Positions 1 through 16,553 of a stretch of DNA of 64,000 bases are shown piece after piece (within the stretch, counting starts at the first letter, position 1; each line of letters opens with the position of its first letter). The stretch lies in sequence record DRR378314_2032; one strand, 5' to 3'. The notes under the pieces are model-generated. The model searched no databases, was not told the DNA's origin, and saw only the letters and a list, made by a program, of their open reading frames with translations. The translations under genes and the position numbers were made by a program.

Positions 1-77
1 CAACCTGAACTTGTTTCAGGTTCTCATAATTATATGTTTACCAGCACGATGAGATTCTGAAATAAATTCGGAATGAC
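1..77. repeat. REP-like palindromic doublet (two inverted imperfect hairpins), probably cut by the window start
   Basis: Hairpin AACCTGAA-N5-TTCAGGTT at 2-22 and inverted copy ATTCTGAA-N5-TTCGGAAT at 54-74 followed by GAC; inner flanks TCTCAT (22-27) and ATGAGA (49-54) are also complementary. Confidence 0.65.
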
Positions 78-202
78 GCATTTCAATACTTTTTAGAATT
101 CACCCTCTTTTTATGTGTTGTAAGATTATGATCGGAATCTACGTTCTCCACCAAATACTTTTACTAACTTGTAAATAGATTTCAATAAGTATCAAAAAAT
201 AG

Positions 203-1609
203 ATGCTCGTTCCCATTCTCGTTTCGGTATACATTCTAATTGCCCTGGTCATGGTGATAAGTTTGTTGTTAAATGGTGTGAGACCCAGCAAGACCTTGGC
301 TTGGCTGTTGGCCATTTTCACCATACCCGTGGCAGGCGGTCTTTTATATATCCTATTTGGACGAAACAGAAGAAAAAGTAAAATGTTCTCCTTGAAGAAT
401 CAGTTTGGACCGATAAACAAACTGGAACATGTAACTTGCCATCCCGAAATTTCTGGGAACAAACAAAAAATAACTTTTTTAATAAATAAAACATCCAAGT
501 GTCCTGTTACTTGCTATAATAATTTGGACTTGTTGAAAGATGGAAAGAATACTTTTGAAAGTATTTTTCATGCACTTGAGGAGGCCAAAGAACATATCCA
601 TCTACAATACTACATTTTTGAGGATGGCCTCTTGGCAGATAAACTTTTGGAGGTTTTTGAACGGAAAATAGCCGAGGATGTCACCATCCGACTTCTATAC
701 GATGGTATTGGCAGCTACTCGTTAAGTAAAAAATATCTCAGAAAACTTAAAAAGATCGGGGTGGAGACAGCTCAATTTCTACCCTTCAAATTTGGTAGGT
801 TCCTTTCCGCATTAAACTATAGGAACCACAGAAAGATTATCGTAATCGATAACAAAATTGGGTTTACGGGCGGCATCAATATTTCGGACAAATACCTAAA
901 GGGAGACCCCGCTTTGGGCAAATGGCACGATACCCACTTAAAGATTGAAGGTGAGGCCGTTGATTTTTTAAATAGGACATTTATGACCGATTGGTACCTC
1001 GCCAGTGGAAATAAAGTGGATTTCTCTACTTTCAAAGTCTACAGGGCACCCAAAATAGGGACCTCTCTCCAAATAGTTCCCAGTGGACCGGATGACGATT
1101 TTGATGTAATGGAGCAGGTTTATTTTTCAATTATAAACAGTGCGGAAAAATACCTTTATATAGTTAATCCTTACATTATTCCGAACCATGCAATATTGCA
1201 AGCATTGATGACCGCGGCATTGAGCGGGGTCGATGTAAGAATCCTGATGTCCACCAGTACAGATATAAAACTTGTAGATTGGTGCGTAAGGGCCTATTTT
1301 GAGTCGTATCTTAAAGCGGGCATTAAGATATATTTATACGACGATGGCTTTTTGCATAGCAAGGTAATGTTGTGTGATGACGAAGTCGCCAGCATTGGTA
1401 CGGCAAACCTCGATAACAGAAGTCTACAACAAAACTATGAGGCACAGGTGTTTGTTTATGATAGTGTTCTGTGCCAACAAATGAAATCCGATTTTTTGAA
1501 AGATTGTGAAAAATCCATCATTTTGGAGGACTACGAAAAATACAAGGAAAGACCTTGGATCAAAAAATTGATCGAAGGCTTCGCTAAATTGTTGAGTCCG
1601 GTTTTATAG
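203..1609 (+). CDS. cls: Cardiolipin synthase (phospholipase D family)
   Basis: Two N-terminal TM helices and two HKD motifs (RNHRKIIVID, LHSKVMLCD). Confidence 0.92.
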   Translation: MLVPILVSVYILIALVMVISLLLNGVRPSKTLAWLLAIFTIPVAGGLLYILFGRNRRKSKMFSLKNQFGPINKLEHVTCHPEISGNKQKITFLINKTSKCPVTCYNNLDLLKDGKNTFESIFHALEEAKEHIHLQYYIFEDGLLADKLLEVFERKIAEDVTIRLLYDGIGSYSLSKKYLRKLKKIGVETAQFLPFKFGRFLSALNYRNHRKIIVIDNKIGFTGGINISDKYLKGDPALGKWHDTHLKIEGEAVDFLNRTFMTDWYLASGNKVDFSTFKVYRAPKIGTSLQIVPSGPDDDFDVMEQVYFSIINSAEKYLYIVNPYIIPNHAILQALMTAALSGVDVRILMSTSTDIKLVDWCVRAYFESYLKAGIKIYLYDDGFLHSKVMLCDDEVASIGTANLDNRSLQQNYEAQVFVYDSVLCQQMKSDFLKDCEKSIILEDYEKYKERPWIKKLIEGFAKLLSPVL

Positions 1610-2611
1610 TGTCACCGCCTCGAACCCCAACTCGTTTTTGCAGGTTTTCCCCTCTTCCCAACAATCCAAATTATAAATAGTGGTCTCGGCTATTCTAAAC
1701 AAGGCCTCTTTGGTAGCAAATGCCTGGTGCGGTGTTAAGAGTACGTTTGGCAAAGCTATCAGTTCTTTGAGGACCTCATCATTGATTCCGTTTTTACTGT
1801 TATCTTTAAAAAACACACCTCTTTCGTGCTCATAAACATCGGTGGCATACCCTCCGAGATGGCCACTTTTCAACGCATCGATTACATCTTCCGTTTTTAC
1901 GATACCGCCGCGCGCCGTATTGATCAATATGGCTCCCTCTTTCATTGCCATGAACAAGGGCTCATAAAAAATGTGGTGCGTTTCATAATTGAGGGGCGCA
2001 TTTATACTGATAATATCCGACCGTCTGCACAATTCTTCCAAAGGAAGGTATTCCAAATCGTAATGGCTTTCCAGGTAATGGTTGCGTTTTAAATCGGTGG
2101 CTACCACCTTGCACCCAAAGGCATGGAATATTTTCACCAAAATAGAACCAATTCTTCCAGTTCCGAATATACCGACGGTTTTCCCGTTCAAGTCAAAACC
2201 CATTAAATTGTCCAATGTAAAATTATATCGCTTCACTTGGGCATCGGCCTGAACGAGCTTACGGTTCAAAGCTAGCAACATCCCAATCGTATGCTCTGCA
2301 ATGGCGTTTGGTGAATATTCTGGTGCATAGGCCACCTTGAACCCGATTCGTTTAGCAGATTTGACACTAACGTTATTGTAACCCGTTGATCGCAGCGTGA
2401 TGTACTTTACCCCCAAATCCCAGAGCATCTCCAAGACAACCAAGGAAGCATCGTCGTTGGAAAAAATGGAAATGGCATCGTACCCAGCTGCCATTACAGC
2501 AGTTGTTGAGTTCAGAACGTCGGGCACAAACTTTAGTTTGTGCTTGTTCCCATTTAATTTTTCCAGGTTTTTTATTTCAAAATCCTTGGCGCTATACACC
2601 AGTACTTTCAT
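1604..2611 (-). CDS. D-2-hydroxyacid dehydrogenase, D-lactate dehydrogenase (LdhA)-like
   Basis: GIFGTGRIG Rossmann motif, INTARG, DVYEHE, LTPHQAFAT; ATG at 2611 preferred to TTG at 2617. Confidence 0.85.
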   Translation of the reverse strand: MKVLVYSAKDFEIKNLEKLNGNKHKLKFVPDVLNSTTAVMAAGYDAISIFSNDDASLVVLEMLWDLGVKYITLRSTGYNNVSVKSAKRIGFKVAYAPEYSPNAIAEHTIGMLLALNRKLVQADAQVKRYNFTLDNLMGFDLNGKTVGIFGTGRIGSILVKIFHAFGCKVVATDLKRNHYLESHYDLEYLPLEELCRRSDIISINAPLNYETHHIFYEPLFMAMKEGAILINTARGGIVKTEDVIDALKSGHLGGYATDVYEHERGVFFKDNSKNGINDEVLKELIALPNVLLTPHQAFATKEALFRIAETTIYNLDCWEEGKTCKNELGFEAVTL

Positions 2612-2623
2612 CTTCAATACATT

Positions 2624-3067
2624 TTAATTCAACAATCTTTTTTGTTTCTTCCGTTTGATCACATTGGAAACGATATCGAAAATTTTGGTCTTGGAATCTC
2701 TGTATTTCACAAAGAAATCTTCCACTTCCCTACCAAGTTCGCTATGGGTTTCCAAGTAGGCCTGCTCCATTTTTTCCTGGTTGACTTGATCCAACATAAT
2801 TTGGAGCTGATTCCCGTGCAATTGCACTTTTTTAAAAAGATCTACCAAATCCTTCTCCGATTTGTTCAACGATTCCACGACAGGCTGTATGGTCTTGAAC
2901 ATGTCTGAATCTATGATGTCCAACGTATAGTCTTTTACCATTTGGTTCAAGAACTTTTGTTCATCCCGAGCAAAATGTAGTTCGGAAGACCATTTTTTTG
3001 ATTCTTCATGCAATTCCTCAGCACTGAACCACTCCCTAAATCTTCGTTTGTTTGATTTTGTTTCCAT
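2624..3067 (-). CDS. Hypothetical all-helical protein, paralog of 3592..4023
   Basis: 147-aa ORF in operon orientation; shares WxSxLxFxxxExxF, HxNxL and YxExH with 3592..4023. Confidence 0.75.
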   Translation of the reverse strand: METKSNKRRFREWFSAEELHEESKKWSSELHFARDEQKFLNQMVKDYTLDIIDSDMFKTIQPVVESLNKSEKDLVDLFKKVQLHGNQLQIMLDQVNQEKMEQAYLETHSELGREVEDFFVKYRDSKTKIFDIVSNVIKRKKQKRLLN

Positions 3068-3083
3068 CGCTAAAATACTTTGT

Positions 3084-3109
3084 GCGGCAGATGATTTTTC
3101 ATCTGCCGC
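3084..3109. terminator. 11-bp stem-loop downstream of hsp20 (terminator or mRNA-stabilising hairpin)
   Basis: GCGGCAGATGA-TTTT-TCATCTGCCGC perfect inverted repeat; no clear U-tract directly after it on the minus strand. Confidence 0.5.
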
Positions 3110-3118
3110 GAATTTTGA

Positions 3119-3559
3119 TCAAACCACCTCGATTACTTTTTTATGGTTTTCCTTGGCCACTTCCAGTTTATGGATCTTGAGCTTAAGAATACCATTTTCG
3201 TATACCGCCTTGATTTCTTTGGATTGATCTACGGTAGGTGGTAATTGTAGGTTTCTGGTAAATGCATTGTAGTTGAACTCCCTTCGGGTAAAGTTTTCTT
3301 CCTCTTCGGTTTCCTCTTTGCTCTTCTGGGCCGATACCTCCAATACATCATCTTTCATAGTGATCTCGAAATCTTTCTTGTCAAATCCAGGTACGGCTAA
3401 TTCAATTTCAAAATCATCTTTGTGTTCTTTTACATTCATTGATGGATGGTTTTTTTCCAAATTGAAAAAATCATCATCAACAAATGCATCTCGATTGAAA
3501 AAATCAATCAGTTTCTCATTCCATGGAAATCGCTTTCCATCCAATTTTACAAGTGACAT
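3119..3559 (-). CDS. Small heat shock protein (Hsp20/alpha-crystallin family)
   Basis: PSMNVKE...IELAVPGFDKKDF...FTRNLQLP...AVYENGILKLKIHK alpha-crystallin signature. Confidence 0.93.
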   Translation of the reverse strand: MSLVKLDGKRFPWNEKLIDFFNRDAFVDDDFFNLEKNHPSMNVKEHKDDFEIELAVPGFDKKDFEITMKDDVLEVSAQKSKEETEEEENFTRREFNYNAFTRNLQLPPTVDQSKEIKAVYENGILKLKIHKLEVAKENHKKVIEVV

Positions 3560-3581
3560 AACTATTCAAATTATTGATTAA

Positions 3582-3595
3582 TTGACCTATATCAA
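3582..3595. promoter_or_regulatory. Crp/Fnr-type box upstream of hsp20
   Basis: TTGACCTATATCAA, one mismatch from the FNR consensus TTGAT-N4-ATCAA; matches local TGAY-N4-RTCA. Confidence 0.55.
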
Positions 3596-4023
3596 TCCGA
3601 TATGGAAGAATCCACATCAGTAAAAGGACTTCTTCGTTTGAGCACGGAACCAGCGTAATCGTACACTTCTTTTTTAAGCTTGATGTATCTCTGGATATAA
3701 TCTGTAAACTTCTCCTTTATGCCCTGGTGTTTTTCATAATAATGATTGTCGCATTCTTCTTGGGTACATTCATAAATGCCTCCTAAACCGTTCTCGTGCT
3801 TCGCCATGATTGCCGATAGGGATTTCCTTTCCTTCTTGGAAATGGTAAAATGTTGTTTAAAAGTTTCCAACCGCTCGAACAACTTGGGAGTTCTCGGTTC
3901 AAACACGTAGGAATCCAATAGCTTTTGGATAAAAGCCATTTCGCCCTCGATAAACTGCAAATAGGATTTCCAATTTTGCAGTTCCCCACGCATTACCTCT
4001 ATTTGTCTATCCCTTACCATCAT
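3592..4023 (-). CDS. Hypothetical all-helical protein, paralog of 2624..3067
   Basis: 143-aa ORF; WKSYLQFIEGEMAF, HENGL and YYEKH align with 2624..3067. Confidence 0.75.
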   Translation of the reverse strand: MMVRDRQIEVMRGELQNWKSYLQFIEGEMAFIQKLLDSYVFEPRTPKLFERLETFKQHFTISKKERKSLSAIMAKHENGLGGIYECTQEECDNHYYEKHQGIKEKFTDYIQRYIKLKKEVYDYAGSVLKRRSPFTDVDSSISD

Positions 4024-4042
4024 TGCGGCATTAAATTATTAC

Positions 4043-4086
4043 TGAAAGTAAGGTTTGATGGGTTATTGTGAAATGATTTAAATCAT
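4043..4086 (-). promoter_or_regulatory. Crp/Fnr-type box plus -7 element for 3592..4023
   Basis: ATGATTTAAATCAT at 4073-4086; minus-strand TACTTTCA at 4043-4050, 23 nt from the box core. Confidence 0.65.
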
Positions 4087-4098
4087 ATCAACAAGTTA

Positions 4099-4527
4099 CT
4101 AAGTCTGTTCCGGGAACCGGTCATCCATTCCAAAGGATTGTTTCACCAAGGCCTTAAACTGGTTTTCGGTCATGCTGTCTACCGTTTCCACCTTTTTAAC
4201 CTTATCGGCCAAATGGGAATGCCTTGTTTTTAATGCATCCATAAATTTCTCCGGAGCTTCGGCGGGCCCAAAAATGTTTATTTGATCCGCATCTGAAATA
4301 TGTTCGGCAATCTTTTCAAAATAATCCTTCAATTGATGTTTTTCTCTTTCCAAGTATTTGCTGTCCTGCACAACATCTTGTGGGCCCCATTTGGTTTTGG
4401 ATCGAGCTCCCCCTTTGGGATTAAAGAAATCCAGTTCCGAAGGAATGTTGGTCAGGTTTTCTTTTCCATTGTTCAAAACTACGATATTGGCCTCTAGTTT
4501 GTCCAGCCATATTCCTACTCGCTTCAT
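4099..4527 (-). CDS. Stand-alone eRF1-middle-domain / host-attachment-like protein
   Basis: N-terminal GIWLDxxxAxIV strand and YFEKIAEHI..ADQINIFGPAEA motif recalled from baeRF/eRF1_2-like proteins. Confidence 0.55.
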   Translation of the reverse strand: MKRVGIWLDKLEANIVVLNNGKENLTNIPSELDFFNPKGGARSKTKWGPQDVVQDSKYLEREKHQLKDYFEKIAEHISDADQINIFGPAEAPEKFMDALKTRHSHLADKVKKVETVDSMTENQFKALVKQSFGMDDRFPEQT

Positions 4528-4542
4528 AATTCAATCGTTTTT

Positions 4543-5394
4543 CTAGTTATCATTCAGTTCTAAAATCGGCACTTTCGGTTCGTACCCAATCTTTTTCACC
4601 AAAGGGTTTGATAGGATACTTCGAAAGAACAAGTGTTTTCTGTTCAAGAAAGCTATCATATCGCACCCATGGTCATCAATGAATTTGTTTATTCCGCTGC
4701 TAATTTTGTCCGCAGGCAAAAAATGTATTTTGTAATTAGTCCCCTGCAAGATTTCTTGTAACAAATCTTTGTTGATCTTCTCTTTTTTGCTGAGCTTTCC
4801 ATCTTTGTCCTTATCAATGTGAACCACATTGATTTGCGCATCGTACAAATTGGAGATTTCTATCAAATCCCCGATTTCCTTGCGCTTAAAAGGGGTTTTG
4901 TAATCTGTGGGAAAAACAATCTCTCTTGGTGTTTTGAACATATAATTGTTGGGCACGGCGATAACAGGGCATTCTTTGATCTGCTCCATAACATTGACGG
5001 TATTGGTACCGAATATCCGTGCTTTGGATTCTGTGACCCCCTTGGTTCCCATAACAATGATGTCGATATCCTTTTTATCGATTACATTTCGTATGGCCTC
5101 TGTCAAGCTATTGAACGTCGTTATAGTATGAAATTCATGTTTATTATTTTGGGGATGCAGTTTTATCATTTGCATCAACTTTTCCATACCTTCCTCCGAT
5201 TCCTGTTTTGCAGCTTCATAATAGGGTTCGCCCAATTCGGGCACCCTCATGCTGTCCAGGGTATATCCTGAAATGTGAAAAGTATTTAGGATGAAAAAAT
5301 CACATCTCACATTTTTGTAAAGTTCCAATGCATATCTAATGGCGTTCAATGCATTTTTTGAATAATCCGTGGGTAACAAAACTCTCTTGTCCAT
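4543..5394 (-). CDS. Universal stress protein (tandem USP domains)
   Basis: VLLPTDYS, DIIVMGTKG, FGTNT, CPVIAVP, second IVFPTDY. Confidence 0.92.
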   Translation of the reverse strand: MDKRVLLPTDYSKNALNAIRYALELYKNVRCDFFILNTFHISGYTLDSMRVPELGEPYYEAAKQESEEGMEKLMQMIKLHPQNNKHEFHTITTFNSLTEAIRNVIDKKDIDIIVMGTKGVTESKARIFGTNTVNVMEQIKECPVIAVPNNYMFKTPREIVFPTDYKTPFKRKEIGDLIEISNLYDAQINVVHIDKDKDGKLSKKEKINKDLLQEILQGTNYKIHFLPADKISSGINKFIDDHGCDMIAFLNRKHLFFRSILSNPLVKKIGYEPKVPILELNDN

Positions 5395-5412
5395 GACGAT
5401 TTCTGTTTTTAC

Positions 5413-5456
5413 GAAAGTTATATTTCCTCCAAATGATATACTATGATTTTGGTCAA
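5413..5456 (-). promoter_or_regulatory. Crp/Fnr-type box plus -7 element for USP 4543..5394
   Basis: ATGATTTTGGTCAA at 5443-5456; minus-strand TAACTTTC at 5413-5420, 23 nt from the core. Confidence 0.65.
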
Positions 5457-6268
5457 TTTGGAGTACTGGACAAAATCAAAAATGGCACCTTTAATTTAGT
5501 GTTGAGCTCTTTGATAATTCCCTTGCCGATAAACTCCAAGAAAAAATGATGTGGGTAATAAATCATGCAGAGCATATCTATATTCCAAAGGTCCACAAAC
5601 TCCAAAATGGTATTCACCTTTCCTTCTAGCAGAGGCAATTTAACTTCTTTTGCTGCATCTTCGGATACGGCCGTCAAAAAGTCTAATTTGTTCCTCTTGG
5701 CAGGTTCAACAACCTTTTCTTCCTCTATGCTCATGGGAACGATCACACTATCCATCAATCCGTTAAAAAACCGAAGTGCCCTGATGTTTTCCTTTGTTAT
5801 TGGATTAGCGAAATTGGAGGTAAATGCAATTTTGTCGACCTTTTTAAAATCAATTTCCAAAGGAACGATCAATATGGGACAGCACGTAATTTCACGAACC
5901 AATTGCATCGCATTGTTTCCGAACAATATGTGCTTGATCTCTTCTTTTCCCTTGTTGCCGATAACGGTAAGGTCCATATTGTTCTCCTTGGCATATTCGG
6001 CAATCCCTTTGGCCATATCGGAACAGAGAGATTCTTTGTAAAAGGTGTGCTTATTATTTTCGCCAACATCCCTGACCAATCGGTGTACCAAGGCATCCAA
6101 TCCTTGGGCCGACTCCAATTTGGCCTTTTCCATATCCGGATTGTTTTCCTTACTGCACACATTTACGATATGAAATCTGCATTCCTTTCCCTCGAACAAA
6201 CGTGCAGCATAATACAGCGCATTATAGGAGTTGTTCGAAAAATCGGTGGGCACTAAAACTTGTAACAT
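5453..6268 (-). CDS. Universal stress protein
   Basis: VLVPTDFS, DLTVIGNKG, LFGNNA, CPILIVP. Confidence 0.88.
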   Translation of the reverse strand: MLQVLVPTDFSNNSYNALYYAARLFEGKECRFHIVNVCSKENNPDMEKAKLESAQGLDALVHRLVRDVGENNKHTFYKESLCSDMAKGIAEYAKENNMDLTVIGNKGKEEIKHILFGNNAMQLVREITCCPILIVPLEIDFKKVDKIAFTSNFANPITKENIRALRFFNGLMDSVIVPMSIEEEKVVEPAKRNKLDFLTAVSEDAAKEVKLPLLEGKVNTILEFVDLWNIDMLCMIYYPHHFFLEFIGKGIIKELNTKLKVPFLILSSTPN

Positions 6269-6281
6269 AGCTTGTCTTTAC

Positions 6282-7124
6282 TTAAGGGTTAAACGGAAGG
6301 ACTAAAAAGGGAACCTTGCTATGCAGGCCTATATTTTTGATAATGGGCTCCACAAACAGACGCTCTAAAAACGAATGTTTGTTCTTTATCATGGCCAATA
6401 ACGCTACAGGGTGGTCTTTCTGAAAACCATTGATGGCCTCTATCAATTCTTGGTCGGGCAAATCATAAAACTTATGTTTATGCTCCAAGAGCCTGCCCTC
6501 CAAATAAGTTTTATGTTTTTCTTGGGTCATATCCAAGCCTTCCGGCGAGGTTACGTGCATAATATGCAGTTTTGAATGCGATAGCTTGGAAAATTTCAGC
6601 AAAAAGTCCAAATGGGCTTTTTTGTAATCCACTTCGTAGTCCGTTGGGAACAAAATATTGCTAGGTGACTCGTATTCAAAATCGAATGGAACGGCCAAAA
6701 CGGGTATTTTGGATCTTTGAATAACTCGAACCGTATTGGAACCAAAAAGTATTTCTTTGGCCCCGGTGGCGCCCTGTGTTCCCATGGCGATAAAATCAAT
6801 GTTTTCCTTTTGGGAGATGGATGCGATTTCATCTCCTAAACTATTAAAGGCCGCATGGGTCACGAAAGTGTGTTTTGACACATTGAACTTTGCTTTTATC
6901 TTTTTTCTGGTATGCTCCAGCGCCTCTTCGGCCTTATACCTCTCATCATCTGGCAACCCTAATTGTCCAGGACTTCCCATGGTATAATCTACCCTATACA
7001 TGGGAGGAGTGTATGCATGTACCAAATAAAATATACAAGTGGAATGCTCCAGTAGCTTTACGGCATACGAAATGGCATGGAACGCGTTCTCGGAAAAATC
7101 GGTGGGCAATACTACTTTGATCAT
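6282..7124 (-). CDS. Universal stress protein
   Basis: VVLPTDFS, DFIAMGTQG, LFGSNT, IPVLAVP. Confidence 0.92.
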   Translation of the reverse strand: MIKVVLPTDFSENAFHAISYAVKLLEHSTCIFYLVHAYTPPMYRVDYTMGSPGQLGLPDDERYKAEEALEHTRKKIKAKFNVSKHTFVTHAAFNSLGDEIASISQKENIDFIAMGTQGATGAKEILFGSNTVRVIQRSKIPVLAVPFDFEYESPSNILFPTDYEVDYKKAHLDFLLKFSKLSHSKLHIMHVTSPEGLDMTQEKHKTYLEGRLLEHKHKFYDLPDQELIEAINGFQKDHPVALLAMIKNKHSFLERLFVEPIIKNIGLHSKVPFLVLPFNP

Positions 7125-7153
7125 AGCTTGAGAATTTAAAAATCCTATGGTAA

Positions 7154-7197
7154 CAAAGCTAAGTAGCAGCTTATTTGTAAACTATGATTTACATCAC
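7154..7197 (-). promoter_or_regulatory. Crp/Fnr-type box plus consensus -7 element for USP 6282..7124
   Basis: ATGATTTACATCAC at 7184-7197; minus-strand TAGCTTTG (perfect TAnnTTTG) at 7154-7161, 23 nt from the core. Confidence 0.72.
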
Positions 7198-7239
7198 ATT
7201 CCCAAAAAACAAGTTCTCAAAAATAACTGAAAATCGGTT

Positions 7240-8073
7240 TTATTCGTGGATGACGTAGAATGGTATTTTTGTATGAAAACTGATTCGCTCTACTATGGAA
7301 TCGAACAAAATCTGTTGGATAAAATTAAGGTTTTTGGCTACCATGATCATCATATCCACATCCCTGCTTTCCACAAAACATTGTATAGCCTCCTTTACCT
7401 TTTGATTGGTTATGGTATGAAAACTATAGTTTCCAGGGAATGTGTCATCCATAAAATCCAAAAGGTATTCCTTGTTCTTTTCCTGCTCCAGGTTGAGCCC
7501 GTCCCCTTCTTTTAAGGCATTCATGATCCTGAACTGGGCCTTTCCCAATTTGACCATTTCCTCCATGGGACGAAGAATCTTCAAGGAATAAAAAATATTA
7601 AAATCTGTAGGGAAAGCTATTTCCCTTGGTTTGGAAAGTTCTACCTGGATTGGAACTACCAGGGTATTGCACTGCACCCGGGTTATCACGTCCCCAGCAT
7701 TGCTTCCTACCACCTTTTCCTTTAAGCCCGAAGCTCCCTTGGTACCCATAACAATAAGGTCGATATCATTTTCTTCTAAATGCTTTTTGATGGTCGGAAT
7801 AAAAAAACCGTACTCGTGCAGGGGAAAAAAGAAGTGATGGGCCTCTGTGCTATGTTCCCTTATTTCCTTTACAAGTTCCGTCAACCTTTCTTTGGTATTA
7901 TCGTCGGATTGATCAGTCTCATAAAAGGATTCCACATCATTTTTTGTATCCAAAAGGGAGCCCACATAAAGTAGGTAAAAGTTACATTCCAACGTGCTAA
8001 AAAGTAATTCTGCATACTTTAAGGCTTGAATGGAATTCTCTGAAAAATCTGTTGGGACCAGAATATTCTTCAT
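7240..8073 (-). CDS. Universal stress protein
   Basis: ILVPTDFS, DLIVMGTKGASG, VGSNAG, IAFPTDF. Confidence 0.92.
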   Translation of the reverse strand: MKNILVPTDFSENSIQALKYAELLFSTLECNFYLLYVGSLLDTKNDVESFYETDQSDDNTKERLTELVKEIREHSTEAHHFFFPLHEYGFFIPTIKKHLEENDIDLIVMGTKGASGLKEKVVGSNAGDVITRVQCNTLVVPIQVELSKPREIAFPTDFNIFYSLKILRPMEEMVKLGKAQFRIMNALKEGDGLNLEQEKNKEYLLDFMDDTFPGNYSFHTITNQKVKEAIQCFVESRDVDMMIMVAKNLNFIQQILFDSIVERISFHTKIPFYVIHE

Positions 8074-8121
8074 TTGTCATAAATTAAAGGCGCAAGTTGG
8101 TTATTCATCAAAAAAAAAAGA

Positions 8122-8135
8122 ATGATAAATATCAC
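8122..8135. promoter_or_regulatory. Crp/Fnr-type box upstream of USP 7240..8073
   Basis: ATGATAAATATCAC; only a weak -7-like CAACTTGC at the 23-nt position. Confidence 0.6.
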
Positions 8136-8161
8136 TTGCCCTATTTATGACACATAATTTT

Positions 8162-9211
8162 TTAATGCACCCGTTCTAAAGCGTCCCTATCAACCACCAT
8201 TATATGTCTGTTTTCTATAGCAATGAGCCCTTCATTTTTAAAATCCGACAAGGTTCTGATAAGGCTTTCTGTCGCGATACCCGCAACTCCTGCCAAATCG
8301 CTTCTGGCTATTTTTAAGGGCCCTTGTTTATCCTTGTTTATAGCTTTGCTGAATACTAAAAGTGTTTGGGCCGTTTTTTTACGCACCGAACTGTAAGCCA
8401 TTTGCAACAACTGTTTTTTAATACTGGTCAGGTTTTCGGCGATTACATCCATAAGTTCCAAGGAAACACTTTTGTTGTCCTCTAAAATTGCTTTCACCTT
8501 TTCTTTGGATATCCCTGCCAGTTCCACAGCTTCCATAGCAACAGTATATTCTTGATACGGCAAATGATCGGTCAATGAAGTAAAGCCTAAAAAATCATCC
8601 TCGGAGTAGATGGAGGTTATCAGTTCCTTTCCCTCCTCATCCAATCCACAACTTTTTACAACACCTTTAAGGATCAGGTATACCATATTGGAATGCTCTC
8701 CCTTGTTATAAATGGTTTCATCCTTTTTAAAGGAAAACAGATTGCCATGATCATCAAAAAAATTTTTCAATTCGTTCAGGGAACGTATCTCATGCTCACC
8801 ACTTACCTCTTTCGGGTGTTCCTTAAACATTGCGTTCATTTGTTCTGCCTTTTCCAATCGGCACCTAATGGCAGTCAACAGCTCTTCTTCTTCAAAAGGC
8901 TTGGTCAAATAATCATCGGCACCAAGGTTCATCCCCCTTCGCACATCTTGTTTTTCGGTTTTGGCGGAAACAAAAATAAATGGGATGTGACGTGTATTTT
9001 GGTCAGATGATAATTGTTCCAATACTCCATAGCCATCCATTTCCGGCATCATTATATCGCACAGCACCAAATCCGGAAGGTTCTTCTTGGCCATATCGAC
9101 CGCTATTCTCCCGTTTGATGCCGAATACACGCTAAAACCAGATAACTCCAAGAGTTCTGCAATGTTTTCTCGTAGCGAGGTATCATCCTCAACCAGTAAG
9201 ATTTTCTTCAT
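8162..9211 (-). CDS. Hybrid response regulator: REC + cNMP-binding + Crp/Fnr HTH
   Basis: ILLVEDD, LCDIMMPEMDG, ADDYLTKPF receiver; IYNKGEHSNMVYLILKGVVK beta-roll; IARSDLAGVAGIATESLIRTLSDFK HTH. Confidence 0.9.
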   Translation of the reverse strand: MKKILLVEDDTSLRENIAELLELSGFSVYSASNGRIAVDMAKKNLPDLVLCDIMMPEMDGYGVLEQLSSDQNTRHIPFIFVSAKTEKQDVRRGMNLGADDYLTKPFEEEELLTAIRCRLEKAEQMNAMFKEHPKEVSGEHEIRSLNELKNFFDDHGNLFSFKKDETIYNKGEHSNMVYLILKGVVKSCGLDEEGKELITSIYSEDDFLGFTSLTDHLPYQEYTVAMEAVELAGISKEKVKAILEDNKSVSLELMDVIAENLTSIKKQLLQMAYSSVRKKTAQTLLVFSKAINKDKQGPLKIARSDLAGVAGIATESLIRTLSDFKNEGLIAIENRHIMVVDRDALERVH

Positions 9212-10718
9212 TTTCCTTGTTATTTAATGGTATGTACAAAGTGAATGTTGAGCCACTGCCCAATTCACTTTTAAAGGTTACATTGGCATTGAGGTTGTGC
9301 ATATGTTGCCGTACAGTATTAAGGCCAATTCCCGTTCCCTGTACGGTAAGTACATTGGTCGCCCTAAAATATCTATCAAAGATAAAGGGCCTGTCCTCTG
9401 GAGGTATTCCACAACCATGGTCGATCACATTGATTTTAAGTTGTTCGCTTTCTTGTTCAACCTTGAGATCTATATCCGTATGCTCGGGGGAGTATTTTAT
9501 GGCATTGTGCACAAGGTTAGAAAGTGCCAATCCCAATATTTTTTCATCGAATTCAACTACTAGCCCATCAATGTTTTCTGGGTATTGGATATGCTGGCCT
9601 TCTTTTAAGAGCGTGTTGGAATCATAGACCACCTCGTTGATCAACTTACTCAGTGGAAACGGTGTCACCTTATAGTTGACCTTGCCCAGGTCCAAACGTT
9701 CTATGGACAAAAAGTCGGTTAGAATATTGTCCAGATATTTCACCTTGGATTTGATAGTGGAAATATGCTTGTCCCTCTTCTCTTGCTGTTCGGCCTCCCT
9801 ATACTTGGACAACAGGGATGTAGAGGTAAGAATACTGGTAAGGGGGGTCTTAAATTCGTGGGATACCAAGGAAAGGAATTTGGTCTTTAGTTCGTTGAGC
9901 TTTTTCTCTGCCTGTAGTGCCTCGCGCAATTGCTGGGTTCGTTCCTCTACCGTATTCTCCAGTTGCTCGGTATAGTTTTTTCGTTCGGTAATGTCCAGAA
10001 CAATGGCAACGCATACCTGCCTTTTCCCCATAAAAGATGTTTGCAGGTGCACCTCCACCGGATAATCTGTACCATCCTTTCTCTTGTGGACAGTTTCAAA
10101 AATAACCTTTTCCTTTCGACCGGACACCAAGGGGGAAACCAGGCGTTTCATAACTTCCATGGTAACCTCGGGTTTTATATCTATCACCGACATTTTGCCC
10201 AACTCTTGCATGTTATATCCCAAATTCAGTTGGGCACCACGGTTTACATTTATAAAAATGAACGATTCCGCATCGAAAACAAAAATTTCATTTAGGGATT
10301 CGTCAAAAATTTGAAACCAATAATCTATGGTTTGCTCGGCCTTCTTTTTTTCGGAGATATCCATGATCAGGGCCAACACATACCTTTTCGCTTTCAACTT
10401 AAAAGGGTTCAAGCTTATTTCCAAGGGAAACTCTTCACCATCCTTGCGGACACCTACTAAATCAAGTCCCTTTCCCATCTGCCTTGCCTTGCCCTCGCCC
10501 ATAAATCTATCGGCCAGTTTACTGTGCTTGTCCTTAATGCGTTCGGGGATCAAAATGTCCAAAGACTCGCCCAAAAGTTCCCCTTCCCTGTAGTCGAACA
10601 TTTTATTGGCCGCATTATTACTGGCGGTAATTTGCCTTTGGTCATTGACAATAATGATTCCTTCGGAGATTACCTCCGAAAACATGCCTAATATGTTGTT
10701 TTCTTCAAAATTTTCCAA
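9189..10718 (-). CDS. Cytoplasmic PAS-PAS sensor histidine kinase (FixL-like first PAS)
   Basis: Two PAS/PAC units (RKDGEEFPLEISL, RKDGTDYPVEVHL), H-box SHEFKTPL, N-box NAIKYS, G2 GTGIGL; no TM segment; overlaps the regulator start. Confidence 0.9.
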   Translation of the reverse strand: MENFEENNILGMFSEVISEGIIIVNDQRQITASNNAANKMFDYREGELLGESLDILIPERIKDKHSKLADRFMGEGKARQMGKGLDLVGVRKDGEEFPLEISLNPFKLKAKRYVLALIMDISEKKKAEQTIDYWFQIFDESLNEIFVFDAESFIFINVNRGAQLNLGYNMQELGKMSVIDIKPEVTMEVMKRLVSPLVSGRKEKVIFETVHKRKDGTDYPVEVHLQTSFMGKRQVCVAIVLDITERKNYTEQLENTVEERTQQLREALQAEKKLNELKTKFLSLVSHEFKTPLTSILTSTSLLSKYREAEQQEKRDKHISTIKSKVKYLDNILTDFLSIERLDLGKVNYKVTPFPLSKLINEVVYDSNTLLKEGQHIQYPENIDGLVVEFDEKILGLALSNLVHNAIKYSPEHTDIDLKVEQESEQLKINVIDHGCGIPPEDRPFIFDRYFRATNVLTVQGTGIGLNTVRQHMHNLNANVTFKSELGSGSTFTLYIPLNNKENEENLTG

Positions 10719-10735
10719 AACAGTATCTAAATTTA

Positions 10736-10779
10736 CTGATTTTGATCATTTCCCAATGTAAATTTGGTCGGTATCTTTA
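10736..10779 (+). promoter_or_regulatory. Crp/Fnr-type box plus -7 element for the TerB-like gene (divergent from the kinase)
   Basis: CTGATTTTGATCAT at 10736-10749; TATCTTTA at 10772-10779, 23 nt from the core. Confidence 0.65.
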
Positions 10780-10798
10780 AAACCTTGCATTAAAATTT

Positions 10799-11212
10799 AT
10801 GAAAATGTTGGAATCTAAAAAAAAGCTCGGAAACGAATTATACCAAAGTTTAGGAAAACTGTTCTACGCCATGGCTATGGCAGACCATAGTATCCATATG
10901 AAAGAAGTGGAAAAACTCAACGAAACGGTTCGCGACCATTGGTTGGAGGTGGACGATATTGAAGATGAGTACGGCACCGATTCCGCTTTTCAAATTATCT
11001 CTGTATTTGATTGGTTATTGGAATACGGTAAGGACAGTGACCAAATTTATGAGGAGTTTGAAGCCTTTTACACCGATTACAAAATTCTGTTCACCCCACA
11101 AATCAAGGATTTGGCCATGTCTACTTCTCGAGCCATTGCCACTGCCTTTGCGGGCAGCAACAAATCTGAGTTGATTTTGTTGGGGCGCTTGCAATTGCTC
11201 TTTAATACATAA
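10799..11212 (+). CDS. TerB-like (tellurite-resistance fold) protein
   Basis: LFYAMAMADHSIHMKEVEKL matches the TerB AxADGxxxxxE pattern; second pseudo-repeat AFAGSNKSE. Confidence 0.6.
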   Translation: MKMLESKKKLGNELYQSLGKLFYAMAMADHSIHMKEVEKLNETVRDHWLEVDDIEDEYGTDSAFQIISVFDWLLEYGKDSDQIYEEFEAFYTDYKILFTPQIKDLAMSTSRAIATAFAGSNKSELILLGRLQLLFNT

Positions 11213-12034
11213 TCAGAGTTTGATGGTCATCACGGGCATTTTTGCGTGGTTGGAGATATTTTCCGCCAAACTTCCCACCACAAAATGGGCCAAACCTTTT
11301 CTTCCATGGGTTGGAACGACCAACAGATCGGCATCCTTCTCGTGGCAATATTTAAAGATTCCCCGTTCTAAACTTGGGTGGCTGTAAAAGTTGATCTGAA
11401 CATCATTGCCCAATTCTTTTTTGAAGGCTTCCATTCTTTTCTCAACAATATCATACCCTATAAAGTTTGCCCCGGTGGTATTGATATATACGACTTCCAA
11501 ACTGGCCTTGTATAATTTGGCAAATGCATCTGCTTTCTTGTAAACGGAAATACTTTCCTTAGCAAAATCACTGGCCATTACTATTTTTTTGATCGTAAAA
11601 TCTTCATGAGGTTTTTTGATCACGATTACGGGAACATCTGAGGTGCGAACCACCTTTTCTGTATTGGACCCCACAAACAGTTCACTTAAACCACTGGTCC
11701 CATGCGATCCCATTACGACCAAATCGCAATTTTTCTCCCTTGCTACATTATTGACCTCCTCAAAGTCTTTATAATTCTGGATAATTGCTTCTAAAGGAAT
11801 CTTTTTCAGATACTCTTTTTCCGTATACTGTTTGATTTTTTCTTTGGCCAGGTTTAGATAATATTTGGCCTCGGCTTCCTCTGCGATCTCCGAATTGGCC
11901 AAAACAGAGTCCGATATACCGATCATATGGAGCAATACAATTCCAGCTCCATGTTGCTTTGCAATTTTTGAAGCCACCTCTAGGGCATATTCCGAATATT
12001 TCGAAAAATCGACGGGTACCAATATTTTTTTCAT
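11213..12034 (-). CDS. Universal stress protein
   Basis: ILVPVDFS, DLVVMGSHGTSG, VGSNTEKVVR, DLLVVPTHGRKG. Confidence 0.93.
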   Translation of the reverse strand: MKKILVPVDFSKYSEYALEVASKIAKQHGAGIVLLHMIGISDSVLANSEIAEEAEAKYYLNLAKEKIKQYTEKEYLKKIPLEAIIQNYKDFEEVNNVAREKNCDLVVMGSHGTSGLSELFVGSNTEKVVRTSDVPVIVIKKPHEDFTIKKIVMASDFAKESISVYKKADAFAKLYKASLEVVYINTTGANFIGYDIVEKRMEAFKKELGNDVQINFYSHPSLERGIFKYCHEKDADLLVVPTHGRKGLAHFVVGSLAENISNHAKMPVMTIKL

Positions 12035-12135
12035 GTCATCCAAAGTTTAAATAAAAATAGCCTGCTACATAAAGTCGAAAAGATGGTTCCATAGTTCCTG
12101 TTCCATGGATCATTGCCATTTCTATTATTTTAGGT

Positions 12136-12179
12136 TAAAAATAAAATAGGCGTGCTGGTATTCCTATGACCTCGGTCAT
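12136..12179 (-). promoter_or_regulatory. Crp/Fnr-type box plus -7 element for USP 11213..12034
   Basis: ATGACCTCGGTCAT at 12166-12179; minus-strand TATTTTTA at 12136-12143, 23 nt from the core. Confidence 0.65.
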
Positions 12180-12199
12180 ATCTAGAACTGTTGATGGAG

Positions 12200-12490
12200 C
12201 TATTCCAAGGTGTCCAGCTTCTTTTTTAATGATGTCACTTCTTGTTGCAGGCTCTCCACCTGGCTTAACAAATGATGAACGGCCTGGATACCTTCAGGGT
12301 TTATATTGAGCTCGTTGTGCAGGCGCACCATTTTTTCCAAAAGCGGCAAATCTTCTACATGTAGTTTGCCATCGTCCTCATCGTATTCTACCTGTAAAAT
12401 TTCGTACTCGTACATGGAGTAAACAAAAGATTCCCTGACGCCATGTCGCTCACAAAATGTTTTTATCGATATGTAATGTTCCTCTTTCAT
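12200..12490 (-). CDS. cbpM: Chaperone modulator CbpM (MerR-like)
   Basis: 96 aa, RLHNELNINPEGI motif, directly downstream of the cbpA-like gene. Confidence 0.85.
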   Translation of the reverse strand: MKEEHYISIKTFCERHGVRESFVYSMYEYEILQVEYDEDDGKLHVEDLPLLEKMVRLHNELNINPEGIQAVHHLLSQVESLQQEVTSLKKKLDTLE

Positions 12491-12494
12491 GTCA

Positions 12495-13409
12495 CTATGT
12501 TAAGTTGGTTTTCTCCAAGGATTCAAACAGCGATTTTTGCTCGGGGGTCAAGTTCTTTGGCATTTTAACGGTATAGGTAAGGTACAAATCTCCAAACTGA
12601 CCTTCCTTCTTGTATTTCGGAAACCCTTTTCCTTTTAGTTTTACCTTGGTTCCATTCTCCGTTCCAGGGGCTACTTTCAATTTTACTTTTCCCGTTAGCG
12701 TATCCACTTGGATTTCTCCTCCAAGCACTGCCTTTACCAATGGGATTTCAACAGTTTTGTATAGGTTGGCCCCATCGCGTTTAAAAGCCGTATTGTTGAC
12801 AATGGAAAAAGTGATGTACAGGTCACCTGACGGACCACCCTCTACACCTGGGCCTCCGTGCCCTTTAATTTTGATGGTCTGCCCATCTTCGATACCGGCA
12901 GGAATGGTCAAGCGAATATTTTTACCATTAACGGTAAGTGTTTGCTTTTGGGTCGAGTAGACATCCATAAGCGACAGCTGTAGTTCCGCATTGTAGTCCT
13001 GACCCCTAAAACGAACCCGTTGTCCTCTGGAACCAAATCCAGCCCCACCACCTCCGAACATCGATTCAAAAAAATCTGAAAAATCTTGGGCAGAACCGCC
13101 AGAACGACTATAGGTGTAGCCAGAATAATCTCCTTGTCGTCCTTGTTGTGACCTAGAACGTTTTGCTTTCTCGAACTCCTCCGCATGTTGCCAATCCTTG
13201 CCGTACTCATCATATTTTTTCCTTTTCTCTGGGTCGGAGAGTACTTCGTTCGCCTCATTGACACGCTTGAAGCGCTTTTCCGCTTCCTCATCGTTGGGAT
13301 TTAGATCGGGATGATGCTTTCTGGCCAACTTGCGATAGGCTTTTTTTATTTCGTCGATGGATGCTTTTTTGTCCACCCCCAACACTTTGTAATAATCTAT
13401 AAAATCCAT
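12495..13409 (-). CDS. cbpA: DnaJ-class co-chaperone CbpA (J domain + DnaJ_C, no zinc finger)
   Basis: [11 protein letters not shown] motif, G/F-rich linker, C-terminal GDLY repeats, no CxxCxGxG. Confidence 0.85.
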
Positions 13410-13486
13410 AAGACGATACCGTGGTCTGAATTCGTTTAACCTTGAACTATACCCTCAAATTTCGCTAAAAATCTTCTTTTTTTCCA

Positions 13487-13500
13487 ATGACCTTTATCAG
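13487..13500. promoter_or_regulatory. Crp/Fnr-type box between divergent cbpA and upp
   Basis: ATGACCTTTATCAG; minus-strand GAAATTTG 24 nt away toward cbpA. Confidence 0.55.
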
Positions 13501-13587
13501 TGTACAGCCCCATATTAAAAGCTAAGGGTTTTCATTTTTATATCTTCCCAACAAGAATTACCTTTAATCCGGACCAATTCACAGCAT

Positions 13588-14241
13588 ATGATCATCCATC
13601 AATTTGACCACGCCAATTCCATCCTCAACACTTTTATTTCAGAAATCAGGGATGTGGAAATACAAAAGGATGCCATGCGGTTTCGACGTAATATTGAGCG
13701 TATTGGGGAAGTGCTTGCCTACGAATTGAGCAAATCCCTCGATTATGAGGAAACAGCGGTCAAAACTCCACTTGGAACAAAAAAATCATTTCTGTGCGCG
13801 GACAAATTGGTACTCTGCTCCGTTTTACGGGCAGGGCTCCCGCTCCACCATGGTATTTTAAGTTATTTTGATGGTGCAGAAAATGCATTTATTTCGGCAT
13901 ACCGTCATCATCCCAACAATGATGATGATTTTGAGGTAATCGTGAAATATTTTGCGGCACCCTCTCTTGATGATAAGGTGTTAGTATTGACAGACCCGAT
14001 GTTGGCCACGGGAAAAACATTGGAAAATGTACTCGATGCGCTTAAAAGTCATGGAACCCCAAAACAAATCCACATTATTTCTGTTATCGGTTCCAAGCCC
14101 GGAGTTGCAAAAGTTAAACAGGATTTTCCAGAAGATGCCCATTTGTGGATTGCCGCTGTTGATGAAGAACTTACGAGTAAGGGATACATTGTTCCTGGTC
14201 TTGGCGATGCCGGGGACCTAAGCTATGGTGTAAAATTATGA
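13588..14241 (+). CDS. upp: Uracil phosphoribosyltransferase
   Basis: SVLRAG, PRPP motif LTDPMLATG, GYIVPGLGDAGD. Confidence 0.95.
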   Translation: MIIHQFDHANSILNTFISEIRDVEIQKDAMRFRRNIERIGEVLAYELSKSLDYEETAVKTPLGTKKSFLCADKLVLCSVLRAGLPLHHGILSYFDGAENAFISAYRHHPNNDDDFEVIVKYFAAPSLDDKVLVLTDPMLATGKTLENVLDALKSHGTPKQIHIISVIGSKPGVAKVKQDFPEDAHLWIAAVDEELTSKGYIVPGLGDAGDLSYGVKL

Positions 14242-14248
14242 TATAATT

Positions 14249-15625: not shown

Positions 15626-16468
15626 TTACAAATTGCAAAGTGATTTCATTTCCTTTAGAATTCTTTGTTTTCGGCCATTGGAAACCCCCAAATGGTCCAG
15701 CAAGAAACTATTTTTTATCAATTGCCTACACAGTACAATATCCCGTTCCAATAAGAAATCCTTTTCCCTGCTCGACAATAGTGTGGATACCGTGATAGGA
15801 TACAGGCGTAATCTATCTATCCGTTCCTTAAGCCCATCGCCATTTGGATAATCCCAGCTCAAAAGATATAGCCCTACACATGTTCCATATTCGAGGGCAT
15901 CTTGGGTAAATCGCGTGTTGGTCACTACCCAACCCTCAGTAGTTTTAAATGTCTTTTCTTTTTGTGAATTCAATGGAGCCTTAACATCCTTATACCTTGA
16001 GTTGATGTAGAGGGGAACTTTTACACTACATTTAATCCCATCATCTCCGTGGAATTTACATTCAATCACATTCAAGGTGCTGTTTTTGGTGGCAAGTACA
16101 TCAATTTCATGTGAAACGCAGGTGCCCTGAAGCATCTCGCCCACTTTAGTTTCGTAACCAGAGTAATACAAAATACCGCTGATAAATTTTTCAAAAGGAA
16201 AACCCGTAGGCCCTAGTTCGTAAATTGCTTTTTTTAGTTTGTATTTTGATGCGTAGACCGATTCCTTCTTTTTTAAAAGGGCAAAGGCCCGATTGTAAAT
16301 TTCCCGAGTGGAAATACCGGGATAGAGTTCGTCTTGGACACGTTGCACAATCTCTTGAACCATATCATCACTGGCTCCACTATGTAGAAGCGATTTCTTT
16401 AGCTTTTCAACAGAAAACCTAACCTGATCACCAGTTGATTTGGTAATATGAAATTCCCTAATTGCCAT
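15626..16468 (-). CDS. ATP-cone domain fused to Mrr-like PD-(D/E)XK endonuclease
   Basis: N-terminal ITKSTGDQVRFSVEKL...ISTREI ATP-cone pattern; FEKFI, HEIDV, IECK, VVTNTRFTQDA Mrr_cat pattern. Confidence 0.78.
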   Translation of the reverse strand: MAIREFHITKSTGDQVRFSVEKLKKSLLHSGASDDMVQEIVQRVQDELYPGISTREIYNRAFALLKKKESVYASKYKLKKAIYELGPTGFPFEKFISGILYYSGYETKVGEMLQGTCVSHEIDVLATKNSTLNVIECKFHGDDGIKCSVKVPLYINSRYKDVKAPLNSQKEKTFKTTEGWVVTNTRFTQDALEYGTCVGLYLLSWDYPNGDGLKERIDRLRLYPITVSTLLSSREKDFLLERDIVLCRQLIKNSFLLDHLGVSNGRKQRILKEMKSLCNL

Positions 16469-16553
16469 ACTACTAAAATAAGCAACCTTTTAGTTCTCAC
16501 CCTGGATTTTGATTAAAATCGGATATCAAAGAAACACTTTGTAAAGATAGCGG

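Follow-up and report, generated by a model that had tools for sequence, protein, structure and literature searches.

A TGAY-N4-RTCA promoter box of Flavobacteriaceae and its candidate readers, a probable haem-PAS kinase/receiver-Crp pair and an FNR-like protein

The FixL-FixJ-FixK/FnrN network of Alphaproteobacteria, as described in the accessible part of PMC4999443, employs Fe-S FNR-type and kinase-controlled Crp/Fnr proteins that read nearly the same site, each type being patchily distributed. Here, we analyzed a 64,000-nucleotide (nt) stretch of marine flavobacterial DNA from sequence record DRR378314_2032 (the window, meaning the whole stretch), which carries a soluble PAS-PAS kinase, a regulator in which a receiver is fused to a Crp/Fnr module, five universal stress protein (USP) genes, and repeated palindromes of the form TGAY-N4-RTCA (the box). 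The system works like FixL-FixJ-FixK plus FnrN, yet it is not a member of that network. Shared features are a predicted haem-PAS kinase, a Crp/Fnr-type activator, cco and hemN as targets, and two regulator types on one site. In contrast, a REC-LuxR protein of the FixJ type is absent, and since receiver and Crp/Fnr module form one polypeptide here, there is no transcriptional relay. The TTGAT-N4-ATCAA sequence is not found either: the core is shared, but the box has M and K as flanks (ATGAY..RTCAT) instead of the TTGA..TCAA of FixK/FnrN, and it belongs to promoters of the Bacteroidota −7 type. Like FixK, the fusion regulator lacks Fe-S cysteines and is associated with an FNR-type box at cco and hemN, including a boxed ccoS promoter in G145, a genome with fusions only, to which the fusion presumably binds. 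The FNR-like partner protein has a CxxC motif plus Cys55 and Cys107, unlike FnrN and FNR with their three N-terminal cysteines and a central one.

Other described systems resemble the locus in part. The first PAS domain (PAS1) of the kinase is similar in sequence to DosP and FixL, with an aligned invariant proximal His; unlike FixL, Leu replaces the distal Arg in the lineage of the window, and unlike DosP, Lys and Leu occupy the Met95 and Arg97 positions and the output is a histidine kinase predicted to feed a receiver-Crp protein. Class II Crp/Fnr sites center near −41.5, and the box resembles those of Escherichia coli CRP and FNR in its TGA-N6-TCA core, the E and R of the recognition helix and a center at −41.5. 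The fusion differs from E. coli CRP in lacking the cAMP-pocket Glu72/Arg82 and in having Thr for R180, its control being presumably by phosphorylation, and from E. coli FNR in lacking Fe-S cysteines. DosR of mycobacteria is a NarL/LuxR-type regulator with another site. Its kinase DosS uses GAF domains (PMC7753917, accessible part); DosS/DosT-DosR resembles the present system as a two-component hypoxia response with about 50 targets, several USPs among them, and differs from it in having a GAF-haem kinase and a NarL/LuxR regulator rather than haem-PAS and Crp/Fnr, while the regulon described here also switches on high-affinity respiration. An eRF1-fold/Balon-like gene and an S30AE hibernation-type gene, found here among boxed or neighboring genes, add to the likeness in content. 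The DosR parallel drawn by an earlier note, which was made from this DNA sequence alone, extends to gene content and no further.

Lists of response-regulator output domains that include REC-Crp exist, and an earlier bioinformatic mention of such a fusion is possible. Our literature search, conducted by titles and abstract starts, with subscription journals, two output-domain reviews and the SI Appendix of PMC9723704 beyond reach, found no paper on a Bacteroidota FNR-type box or on the receiver-Crp fusion, and none defining the oxygen regulator of Flavobacteriaceae or its site. The accessible parts of PMC3590769 and PMC10187061 do not mention a receiver fusion, and a Flavobacteriales Crp/Fnr homologue is treated as MalR-like in that of PMC8510549.

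The box, its spacing and its genomic spread

Eight box cores, at 3583, 4074, 5444, 7185, 8123, 10737, 12167 and 13488, had been reported by the earlier note, and all of them were verified. They are the boxes of the intergenic DNA in window 1-19211 (1817 bp), for which 2000 shuffles yielded 0.16 on average and never more than 2; a ninth match, at 11221, falls within a USP gene, at its 3′ end, and 14 motif matches occur in the whole window (shuffle mean 4.78, maximum 11). We then considered a set of 81 loci, consisting of the window and 80 loci around relatives of its regulator (the best 80 of 564 confirmed relatives), whose counts overstate independence because one genus is enriched in it. Their 208 kb of intergenic DNA contains 462 boxes versus 13.4 in shuffles, a 35-fold excess, and the density is 2.2 per kb in intergenic versus 0.07 per kb in coding DNA, while every spacer length between 0 and 10 other than 4 gave 7-20 matches to these half-sites. 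Furthermore, 338 of the 572 distinct oriented sites carry a TAnnTTTG-like element (TA and a score of 5 or 6 out of 6) at exactly 23 nt, and any other distance from the box to the −7 element within 10 to 44 nt accounts for 10 sites at most. The frequency of the motif departs from the shuffled background, agreement with which would have spoken against a regulon, and one spacer and one −7 distance stand out. The consensus is about MTGAY-N4-RTCAK, with A (48%) or C (35%) before the 12-mer and T (83%) after it. By target, the −7 element at 23 nt was present for USP genes in 184/206 cases, ccoNO in 11/11, HPF-like genes in 14/16 and hsp20 in 11/13.

The TAnnTTTG element is located at −12 to −5 (PMC9723704, Guerin et al., accessible part). 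With a gap of 23 nt, the 12-bp box therefore spans −47 to −36 and is centered at −41.5, and the boxed promoters, as judged from their spacing and the published position of the −7 element, have the class II geometry that had been proposed for them. The start-site table of the same paper allowed a check in Flavobacterium psychrophilum. It lists 61-nt sequences, of which we took position 51 as +1 because this fits the stated −12 to −5, and seven starts were retrieved, not as a census but through searches with gene names and with 12 exact variants of the box, six of which had no match. The box occupies positions 4-15 (−41.5) for ccoI, a cytochrome c551/c552 gene and a peroxiredoxin gene, positions 5-16 (−40.5) for ccoS and 7-18 (−38.5) for a hypothetical gene, and in all five cases it lies 23 nt before the −7 octamer. 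All five of these retrieved promoters go up on oxygen limitation: after one hour of oxygen deprivation, the log2 rise over the matched control, by our own subtraction from the published table values, was ~5.2 for ccoI, ~3.8 for c551/c552, ~6.3 for the peroxiredoxin gene, ~5.0 for ccoS and ~1.9 for the hypothetical gene, the authors' own values being 4.94 (ccoI) and 4.76 (ccoS). Where the box lies over the core promoter, a decrease was found, namely ~−1.3 at the Crp/Fnr gene that is transcribed away from ccoI and ~−0.7 at another, weak start. The words Crp and Fnr do not occur in the main text of that paper. The published data thus indicated that boxed promoters at −41.5 or −40.5 rise on oxygen limitation in a relative lacking the fusion, in agreement with the low-oxygen signal postulated for the locus.

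Genome-wide counts refer to the nearest genome, G001, rather than to the window's own. It has 53 promoters composed of box, 23 nt and TANNTT, versus 1 in a reversed control, and other spacings yielded 25 over 19-22 nt and 24 over 24-27 nt, or ~6 per spacing. Five of the 53 sites are in this cluster, 8 surround the cbb3 operon, and an island of contig C3 accounts for another 14. Because 48/53 sites lie outside the cluster, the regulon is not self-contained as had been claimed, and the box is used equally in genomes that lack the fusion and have a four-cysteine FNR-like protein. On the respiration side, boxed genes of G001 include ccoI, ccoS-ccoNO-P-G, hemN, a HemG-like gene, an Rrf2 gene and a run of cytochrome c-nosZ (clade II); others encode PPDK, HPF, Dps, OmpW, FtsH, CBS proteins and more USPs. 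The boxed divergent promoter between the Rrf2 gene and the cytochrome c-fasciclin-clade II nosZ genes is found in L122:10332-14705 (G001 C18).

The kinase, the fusion regulator and other candidate readers

The regulator gene (8162..9211, minus strand) encodes 349 amino acids (aa) with a REC domain (4-116), a cNMP-like domain (160-246) and a Crp-type helix-turn-helix (281-347, HTH_Crp_2), and in the structure model a disordered linker, residues 129-139, connects the receiver with a complete Crp fold. D9, D10, D52, S82, K104, E315 and R319 are present in 80/80 relatives. E315 and R319 belong to the recognition helix ATESLIR and align with E181 and R185 of CRP, which bears out the assignment to the Crp/Fnr-type readers. 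No Cys outside the receiver is conserved among the 80 relatives, and thus there are no conserved Fe-S cysteines; Phe210 and no Arg are found in place of the cAMP-pocket residues, and Thr314 aligns with CRP R180. The matches listed by PDB sequence and fold searches cover either the receiver or the Crp half, none both. The window resembles Flagellimonas: its regulator is 99% identical in G001 and 85% identical in named Flagellimonas/Allomuricauda records. At least 7922 database proteins match it at E 1e-30, and the fusion is present in 54/101 Flavobacteriaceae genera, 10/121 order-level genomes and 28/201 phylum-level genomes.

The kinase gene (9189..10718, minus strand; 509 aa from TTG, 498 from the next ATG) overlaps the start of the regulator gene by 23 nt. 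The two genes adjoin in 80/81 loci, boxed USP/terB-like promoters accompany the pair in 80 loci, and its neighbors include hemN and cco genes in Aquimarina and other genera. Pfam recognized a soluble PAS-PAS-HisKA-HATPase protein, in which both PAS domains of the earlier description are real; the second one, however, is found in only 34/80 kinases, 46/80 being shorter than 480 aa, and is by this comparison dispensable. The best PDB matches of PAS1 are the haem-PAS domains of DosP and FixL (E 1e-13 to 2e-10). An alignment was made of 76 family members longer than 400 aa (83 were found; seven short or off-strand ones were left out), in which His65, aligned to the haem ligand of DosP, is invariant (76/76), as are Arg79 (76/76) and Met81. 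At position 85, that of the distal Arg, the window has Leu, with Arg in 47/76 and Leu in 23/76 kinases; in FixL, this residue is R220, equivalent to DosP R97, the distal Arg that stabilizes bound O2 and the position that is mutated in the PDB match. The proximal His is the primary determinant of haem binding according to the accessible part of PMC10468136, and PAS1, a FixL/DosP-cluster PAS with the F-alpha proximal His and without the distal O2-stabilizing Arg, is a predicted haem domain. At the phylum level, a His-bearing PAS kinase adjoins the fusion in 22/28 loci, five of them with a FixL-like IIG.GR motif, and some distant kinase partners have a near-canonical FixL-type PAS motif. We infer that the kinase binds haem with O2 as its ligand, that it transfers phosphate to the fusion, and that the fusion binds DNA.

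G001 encodes two further proteins of the Crp family whose recognition helix is of the same type. One is the FNR-like protein P0001 (229 aa; L087:8567-9253, G001 C21), whose gene is divergent from ccoI and whose helix reads ATESAIR. Its best NCBIfam match is Fnr (E 1.6e-32; 112.8 bits, below the cut-off of 228), and in proteins of this type CxxC, Cys55 and Cys107 are invariant in 17/17 aligned rows, with the third N-terminal Cys missing; P0001 is a likely Fe-S oxygen sensor. FNR-like proteins, present in 69/101 Flavobacteriaceae genera, and the fusion group of the window form separate groups in a Crp-domain tree (support 98 and 99), a quick tree with one mis-extracted row (L240) that was used for group separation only. 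The other is a second receiver-Crp fusion (L086:7407-11035, G001 C3; helix AKETAIR), which adjoins an 849-aa PAS-LOV-GAF kinase and is surrounded by the C3 island of 14 boxed promoters. Its clade (L086, L251, L252, L253 and L254) pairs with large multi-sensor kinases; of 13 second-copy or divergent fusion loci examined, 5 have a partner kinase with GxNCxFLQ, a LOV motif, and the kinase of L253 has a haem-PAS motif plus LOV.

Among the 101 genera, those that have both regulators (n=30) hold a median of 40 sites, those that have just the fusion (n=24) 19.5, those that have just the FNR-like protein (n=39) 15 and those without either (n=8) 2.5, with controls at 1.5-3; the regulator classes rank alike in the order-level sample (mean sites 23.4, 17.7, 11.3 and 3.2). 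Five genomes (G145, G208, G126, G127 and G130) were checked by family search for Crp proteins with an E..R helix. Two fusions are the only such proteins of G145 (50 sites), in line with the idea that a fusion with FixJ- and FixK-like roles is among the readers of the box; the only one of G208 (37 sites) is the FNR-like protein. An extra short Crp (~197 aa) with a V-E-T-V-I-R helix was found in G126, G127 and G130 (L152, L144 and L151, respectively) and, judging by this helix, is a possible further reader of TGA-N6-TCA sites. Among 30 loci inspected in each genome, with genes named by N-termini, boxed genes were USPs, terB-like, HPF-like, cbpA and ccoS in G145, and USPs, HPF-like, hemN, ccoN and PPDK-like in G208. 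The median number of USP domain matches is 13 with the fusion versus 5 without it, and no such link exists for the FNR-like protein (8 versus 10). USP number thus follows the fusion, not the FNR-like protein, supporting a link of the pair to a dormancy-type arm, as the dormancy-like gene set had suggested. By these sequence statistics, the box, its spacing, its genome-wide spread and the tracking of the box by both regulators are established.

Promoters and genes of the window

The −7-like octamers at 23 nt, scored out of 6, proved to be present as had been described at five boxes and in a weak form at 8123. The box at 7185..7196 (minus strand) has a perfect element, TAGCTTTG (6/6) at 7154-7161, and is the promoter of the USP genes 6282..7124 and 5453..6268; that at 5444..5455 (minus strand), with TAACTTTC (5/6) at 5413-5420, serves USP 4543..5394 and the eRF1-like gene 4099..4527; and that at 12167..12178 (minus strand), with TATTTTTA (5/6) at 12136-12143, serves USP 11213..12043. 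The box at 4074..4085 (minus strand; ATGATTTAAATCAT), with the element TACTTTCA (4/6) at 4043-4050, is the promoter of gene 3592..4023, and TAnnTT is found at 23 nt in 25/25 orthologous sites. Transcription from it probably continues to hsp20, 2624..3067 and the dehydrogenase gene 1604..2617, possibly the last gene of this operon. At 8123..8134 (minus strand), before USP 7240..8073, the element is degenerate (CAACTTGC, 3/6, at 8092-8099); the orthologous site has TAnnTTTG in 42/65 loci and a degenerate (A/C)AnnTTG(Y/G) in 15 close relatives, window included, which points to an orthologue of a canonical promoter whose −7 element decayed in close relatives.

The remaining boxes need qualification. 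The box at 10737..10748 (plus strand) lies between the divergent kinase and terB-like genes and faces the latter with TATCTTTA (5/6) at 10772-10779, not the kinase. In sites of this type, TAnnTT stands at 23 nt on the terB side in 53/54 and on the kinase side in 1/61, where TAnnTTT(A/G) is scattered at +1, +9 and +24 to +26; activation of the kinase operon from 10737 was rejected on this count. For the kinase operon, whose promoter region it overlies, the box may act in autorepression, by analogy with the F. psychrophilum Crp/Fnr gene. The box at 13488..13499 (minus strand), before cbpA-cbpM, is atypical in having a non-canonical GA-type octamer, GAAATTTG, at 24 nt (13456-13463); upstream of cbpA, an exact box is found in 14/26 loci, 1/14 with a TA-type −7 element at 23 nt, and box control of cbpAM is uncertain. 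The match at 3583..3594 (minus strand) is doubtful: it is devoid of a −7 element, takes its TGA from the stop codon of 3592..4023, with which it overlaps, leaves only 23 nt to the start codon (ATG) of hsp20, and is absent before hsp20 in the six closest relatives with the gene (L006, L007, L010, L012, L017 and L019). A separate hsp20 promoter at 3583 was rejected, and Hsp20, listed as a target before, and the dehydrogenase, listed as a possible one, are more likely reached via 4074. Orthologues of the dehydrogenase gene have an exact box within 200 nt in 3/24 cases, with a −7 element at 23 nt in none.

Pfam identified the four tandem USP genes (4543..5394, 5453..6268, 6282..7124 and 7240..8073, span 4543..8073; PF00582), a fifth USP with two Usp domains (11213..12043), Hsp20 (3119..3559), CbpA (DnaJ) and CbpM (MerR_2) (12200..13409) and a D-isomer 2-hydroxyacid (D-lactate-type) dehydrogenase (1604..2617), which has no box of its own; all are on the minus strand. 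The 137-aa TerB-like protein (10799..11212, plus strand) belongs to the most tightly linked target family, present in 59/81 loci. Its name is weakly backed, with TerB profile matches in 4/30 family members (best E 0.0029), and Pfam, Atlas and PDB-profile searches did not name it firmly. The same searches left unnamed two paralogous hypothetical proteins of ~145 aa that flank Hsp20 (3592..4023 and 2624..3067, minus strand), the first of which is ~8 aa longer at the C terminus than the 135-aa version of close relatives. In addition, a perfect 11-bp GC-rich hairpin (z −4.1) without a U tract on the coding strand lies between hsp20 and the next gene (3085-3110) and may stabilize the hsp20 segment or attenuate read-through.

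The 142-aa product of 4099..4527 (minus strand) has no Pfam match. Its eRF1-like nature gained backing from its fold: the AlphaFold model (predicted local distance difference test score 75.5) is that of a stand-alone eRF1/aRF1/pelota/Balon middle domain in Foldseek (aRF1, E 9e-7, template-modeling score 0.63; Balon, E 6e-5), a predicted fold consistent with, not proof of, a translation-dampening role. BLASTP of this protein against the Balon-like protein of G001 found no match. A 381-aa protein of G001 (L118:6639-7781, C3) matches the AOC03_06830 ribosome hibernation factor model at E 7e-38, below the cut-off, and has two boxes upstream, neither with a −7 element at 23 nt.

Several neighbors accompany the cluster. 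An ATP-cone/AF1548-like gene and a beta-CASP metallo-hydrolase gene (14249-16468), both found in 31/81 loci, often lie within boxed USP operons elsewhere and are separate in the window, with a one-mismatch box at 16507 lacking a −7 element at 23 nt. A cardiolipin synthase-like PLD gene (203-1609; in 23/81 loci) is convergent with the dehydrogenase gene. Positions 35315-63975 form a polysaccharide-utilization region (SusC/SusD, glycoside hydrolases and three large FG-GAP/CRTAC-like proteins, from open reading frame sequences only), whose five motif matches are coding or without a −7 element. Contigs of one sequencing data set, whose RNA origin is a guess, cover window 1502-7945 and 10205-13358 and little else.

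Proposed mechanism, rivals and meaning

The box looks like a general low-oxygen switch of the family that is read by more than one regulator. In Flavobacteriales, it would serve as the Crp/Fnr site for low oxygen, with a center at −41.5 that makes it abut the sigma-A −33 region. Falling O2 would free the haem-PAS kinase, active in its deoxy form, from inhibition; the kinase would phosphorylate Asp52 of the fusion; and the phosphorylated fusion would activate boxed promoters directly in the class II manner, without a FixJ-to-fixK transcription step. Local targets would comprise the USPs, the terB-like gene, the eRF1-middle-domain protein, Hsp20 and neighbors, and across the genome about 45-50 promoters would use the box, which the fusion would share as a reader with the four-cysteine FNR-like protein beside the cbb3 operon, a parallel Fe-S reader, and with the second receiver-Crp. 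We regard this route as probable. Several observations weigh against it. Genera are not independent samples, and G126, G127 and G130 are not clean single-regulator cases because of the third Crp class with the V-E-T-V-I-R helix. The F. psychrophilum data test the box rather than the fusion, since the annotation of that species has only three Crp/Fnr genes, all short (627, 678 and 681 nt), and two of its USP start sites in the accessible table carry no box. Three of the eight window boxes have a weak or no −7 element, and Leu at the position of DosP R97 means that ligand preference may differ.

The FNR-like protein could also drive the local promoters in this organism. That the window's boxes are in truth activated by this protein in response to oxygen, with the fusion as a minor or conditional reader, would fit its Fnr match (below the cut-off), its four cysteines (17/17 rows), the same box before USPs, HPF, hemN and ccoN in genomes with this protein only, and the F. 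psychrophilum induction without an annotated fusion. We nevertheless find this unlikely, as the 24/101 genera without the FNR-like protein still hold a median of 19.5 sites, the pair co-occurs with boxed USP/terB-like promoters in 80 loci, and USP expansion tracks the fusion rather than the FNR-like protein. About equally improbable is a scheme in which the fusion activates the boxes and the signal is another, the kinase sensing NO, CO, haem redox state or haem supply, or an extra PAS adding input, as in a general stress/stationary-phase branch. The Arg-to-Leu change at the distal position in the kinase lineage of the window, the second PAS in only 34/80 kinases and the pairing of related fusions with kinases bearing other sensor domains, LOV among them, would be explained by it; against it speak the invariant proximal His, the distal Arg kept in 47/76 kinases, the boxed ccoS promoter of fusion-only G145, and the adjacency of the pair to hemN/cco in many genera. 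The dense local boxes and the conserved synteny might suggest a strict private regulon confined to the 12-kb cluster, which is very improbable given that 48/53 strict G001 sites are elsewhere and that genomes without the fusion use the same box. Finally, chance palindromes in AT-rich DNA, of which 3583, one of the eight boxes, does look like an incidental case, are refuted as a general account by the 35-fold excess over shuffles, the single spacer and the single −7 distance, and we give this explanation practically no weight.

Beyond the kinase-fusion route, we propose only tentatively a multi-input hub on one phylum-specific box, fed by the atypical four-Cys FNR as the input for cytoplasmic O2, by the haem-PAS kinase/fusion and, in some marine genera and the nearest genome among them, by a LOV kinase/second receiver-Crp, so that blue light would switch the same hypoxia/dormancy promoters. 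If this were true, the light-switched set would include the clade II nitrous-oxide reductase and cbb3 oxidase promoters.

Flavobacteriaceae break down algal polymers on particles that turn microoxic, and many of them have a cbb3 oxidase and a clade II N2O reductase. The combination of box, 23 nt and TAnnTTTG provides a testable promoter rule, which predicts 15-90 promoters per genome, and two interchangeable regulators can be named for the one box. If, as it appears, phosphorylation of the fused receiver switches the Crp/Fnr protein, this would represent an allosteric route for which the listed PDB matches cover only the separate halves. In organisms that have both readers, knocking out just one may produce no visible effect.

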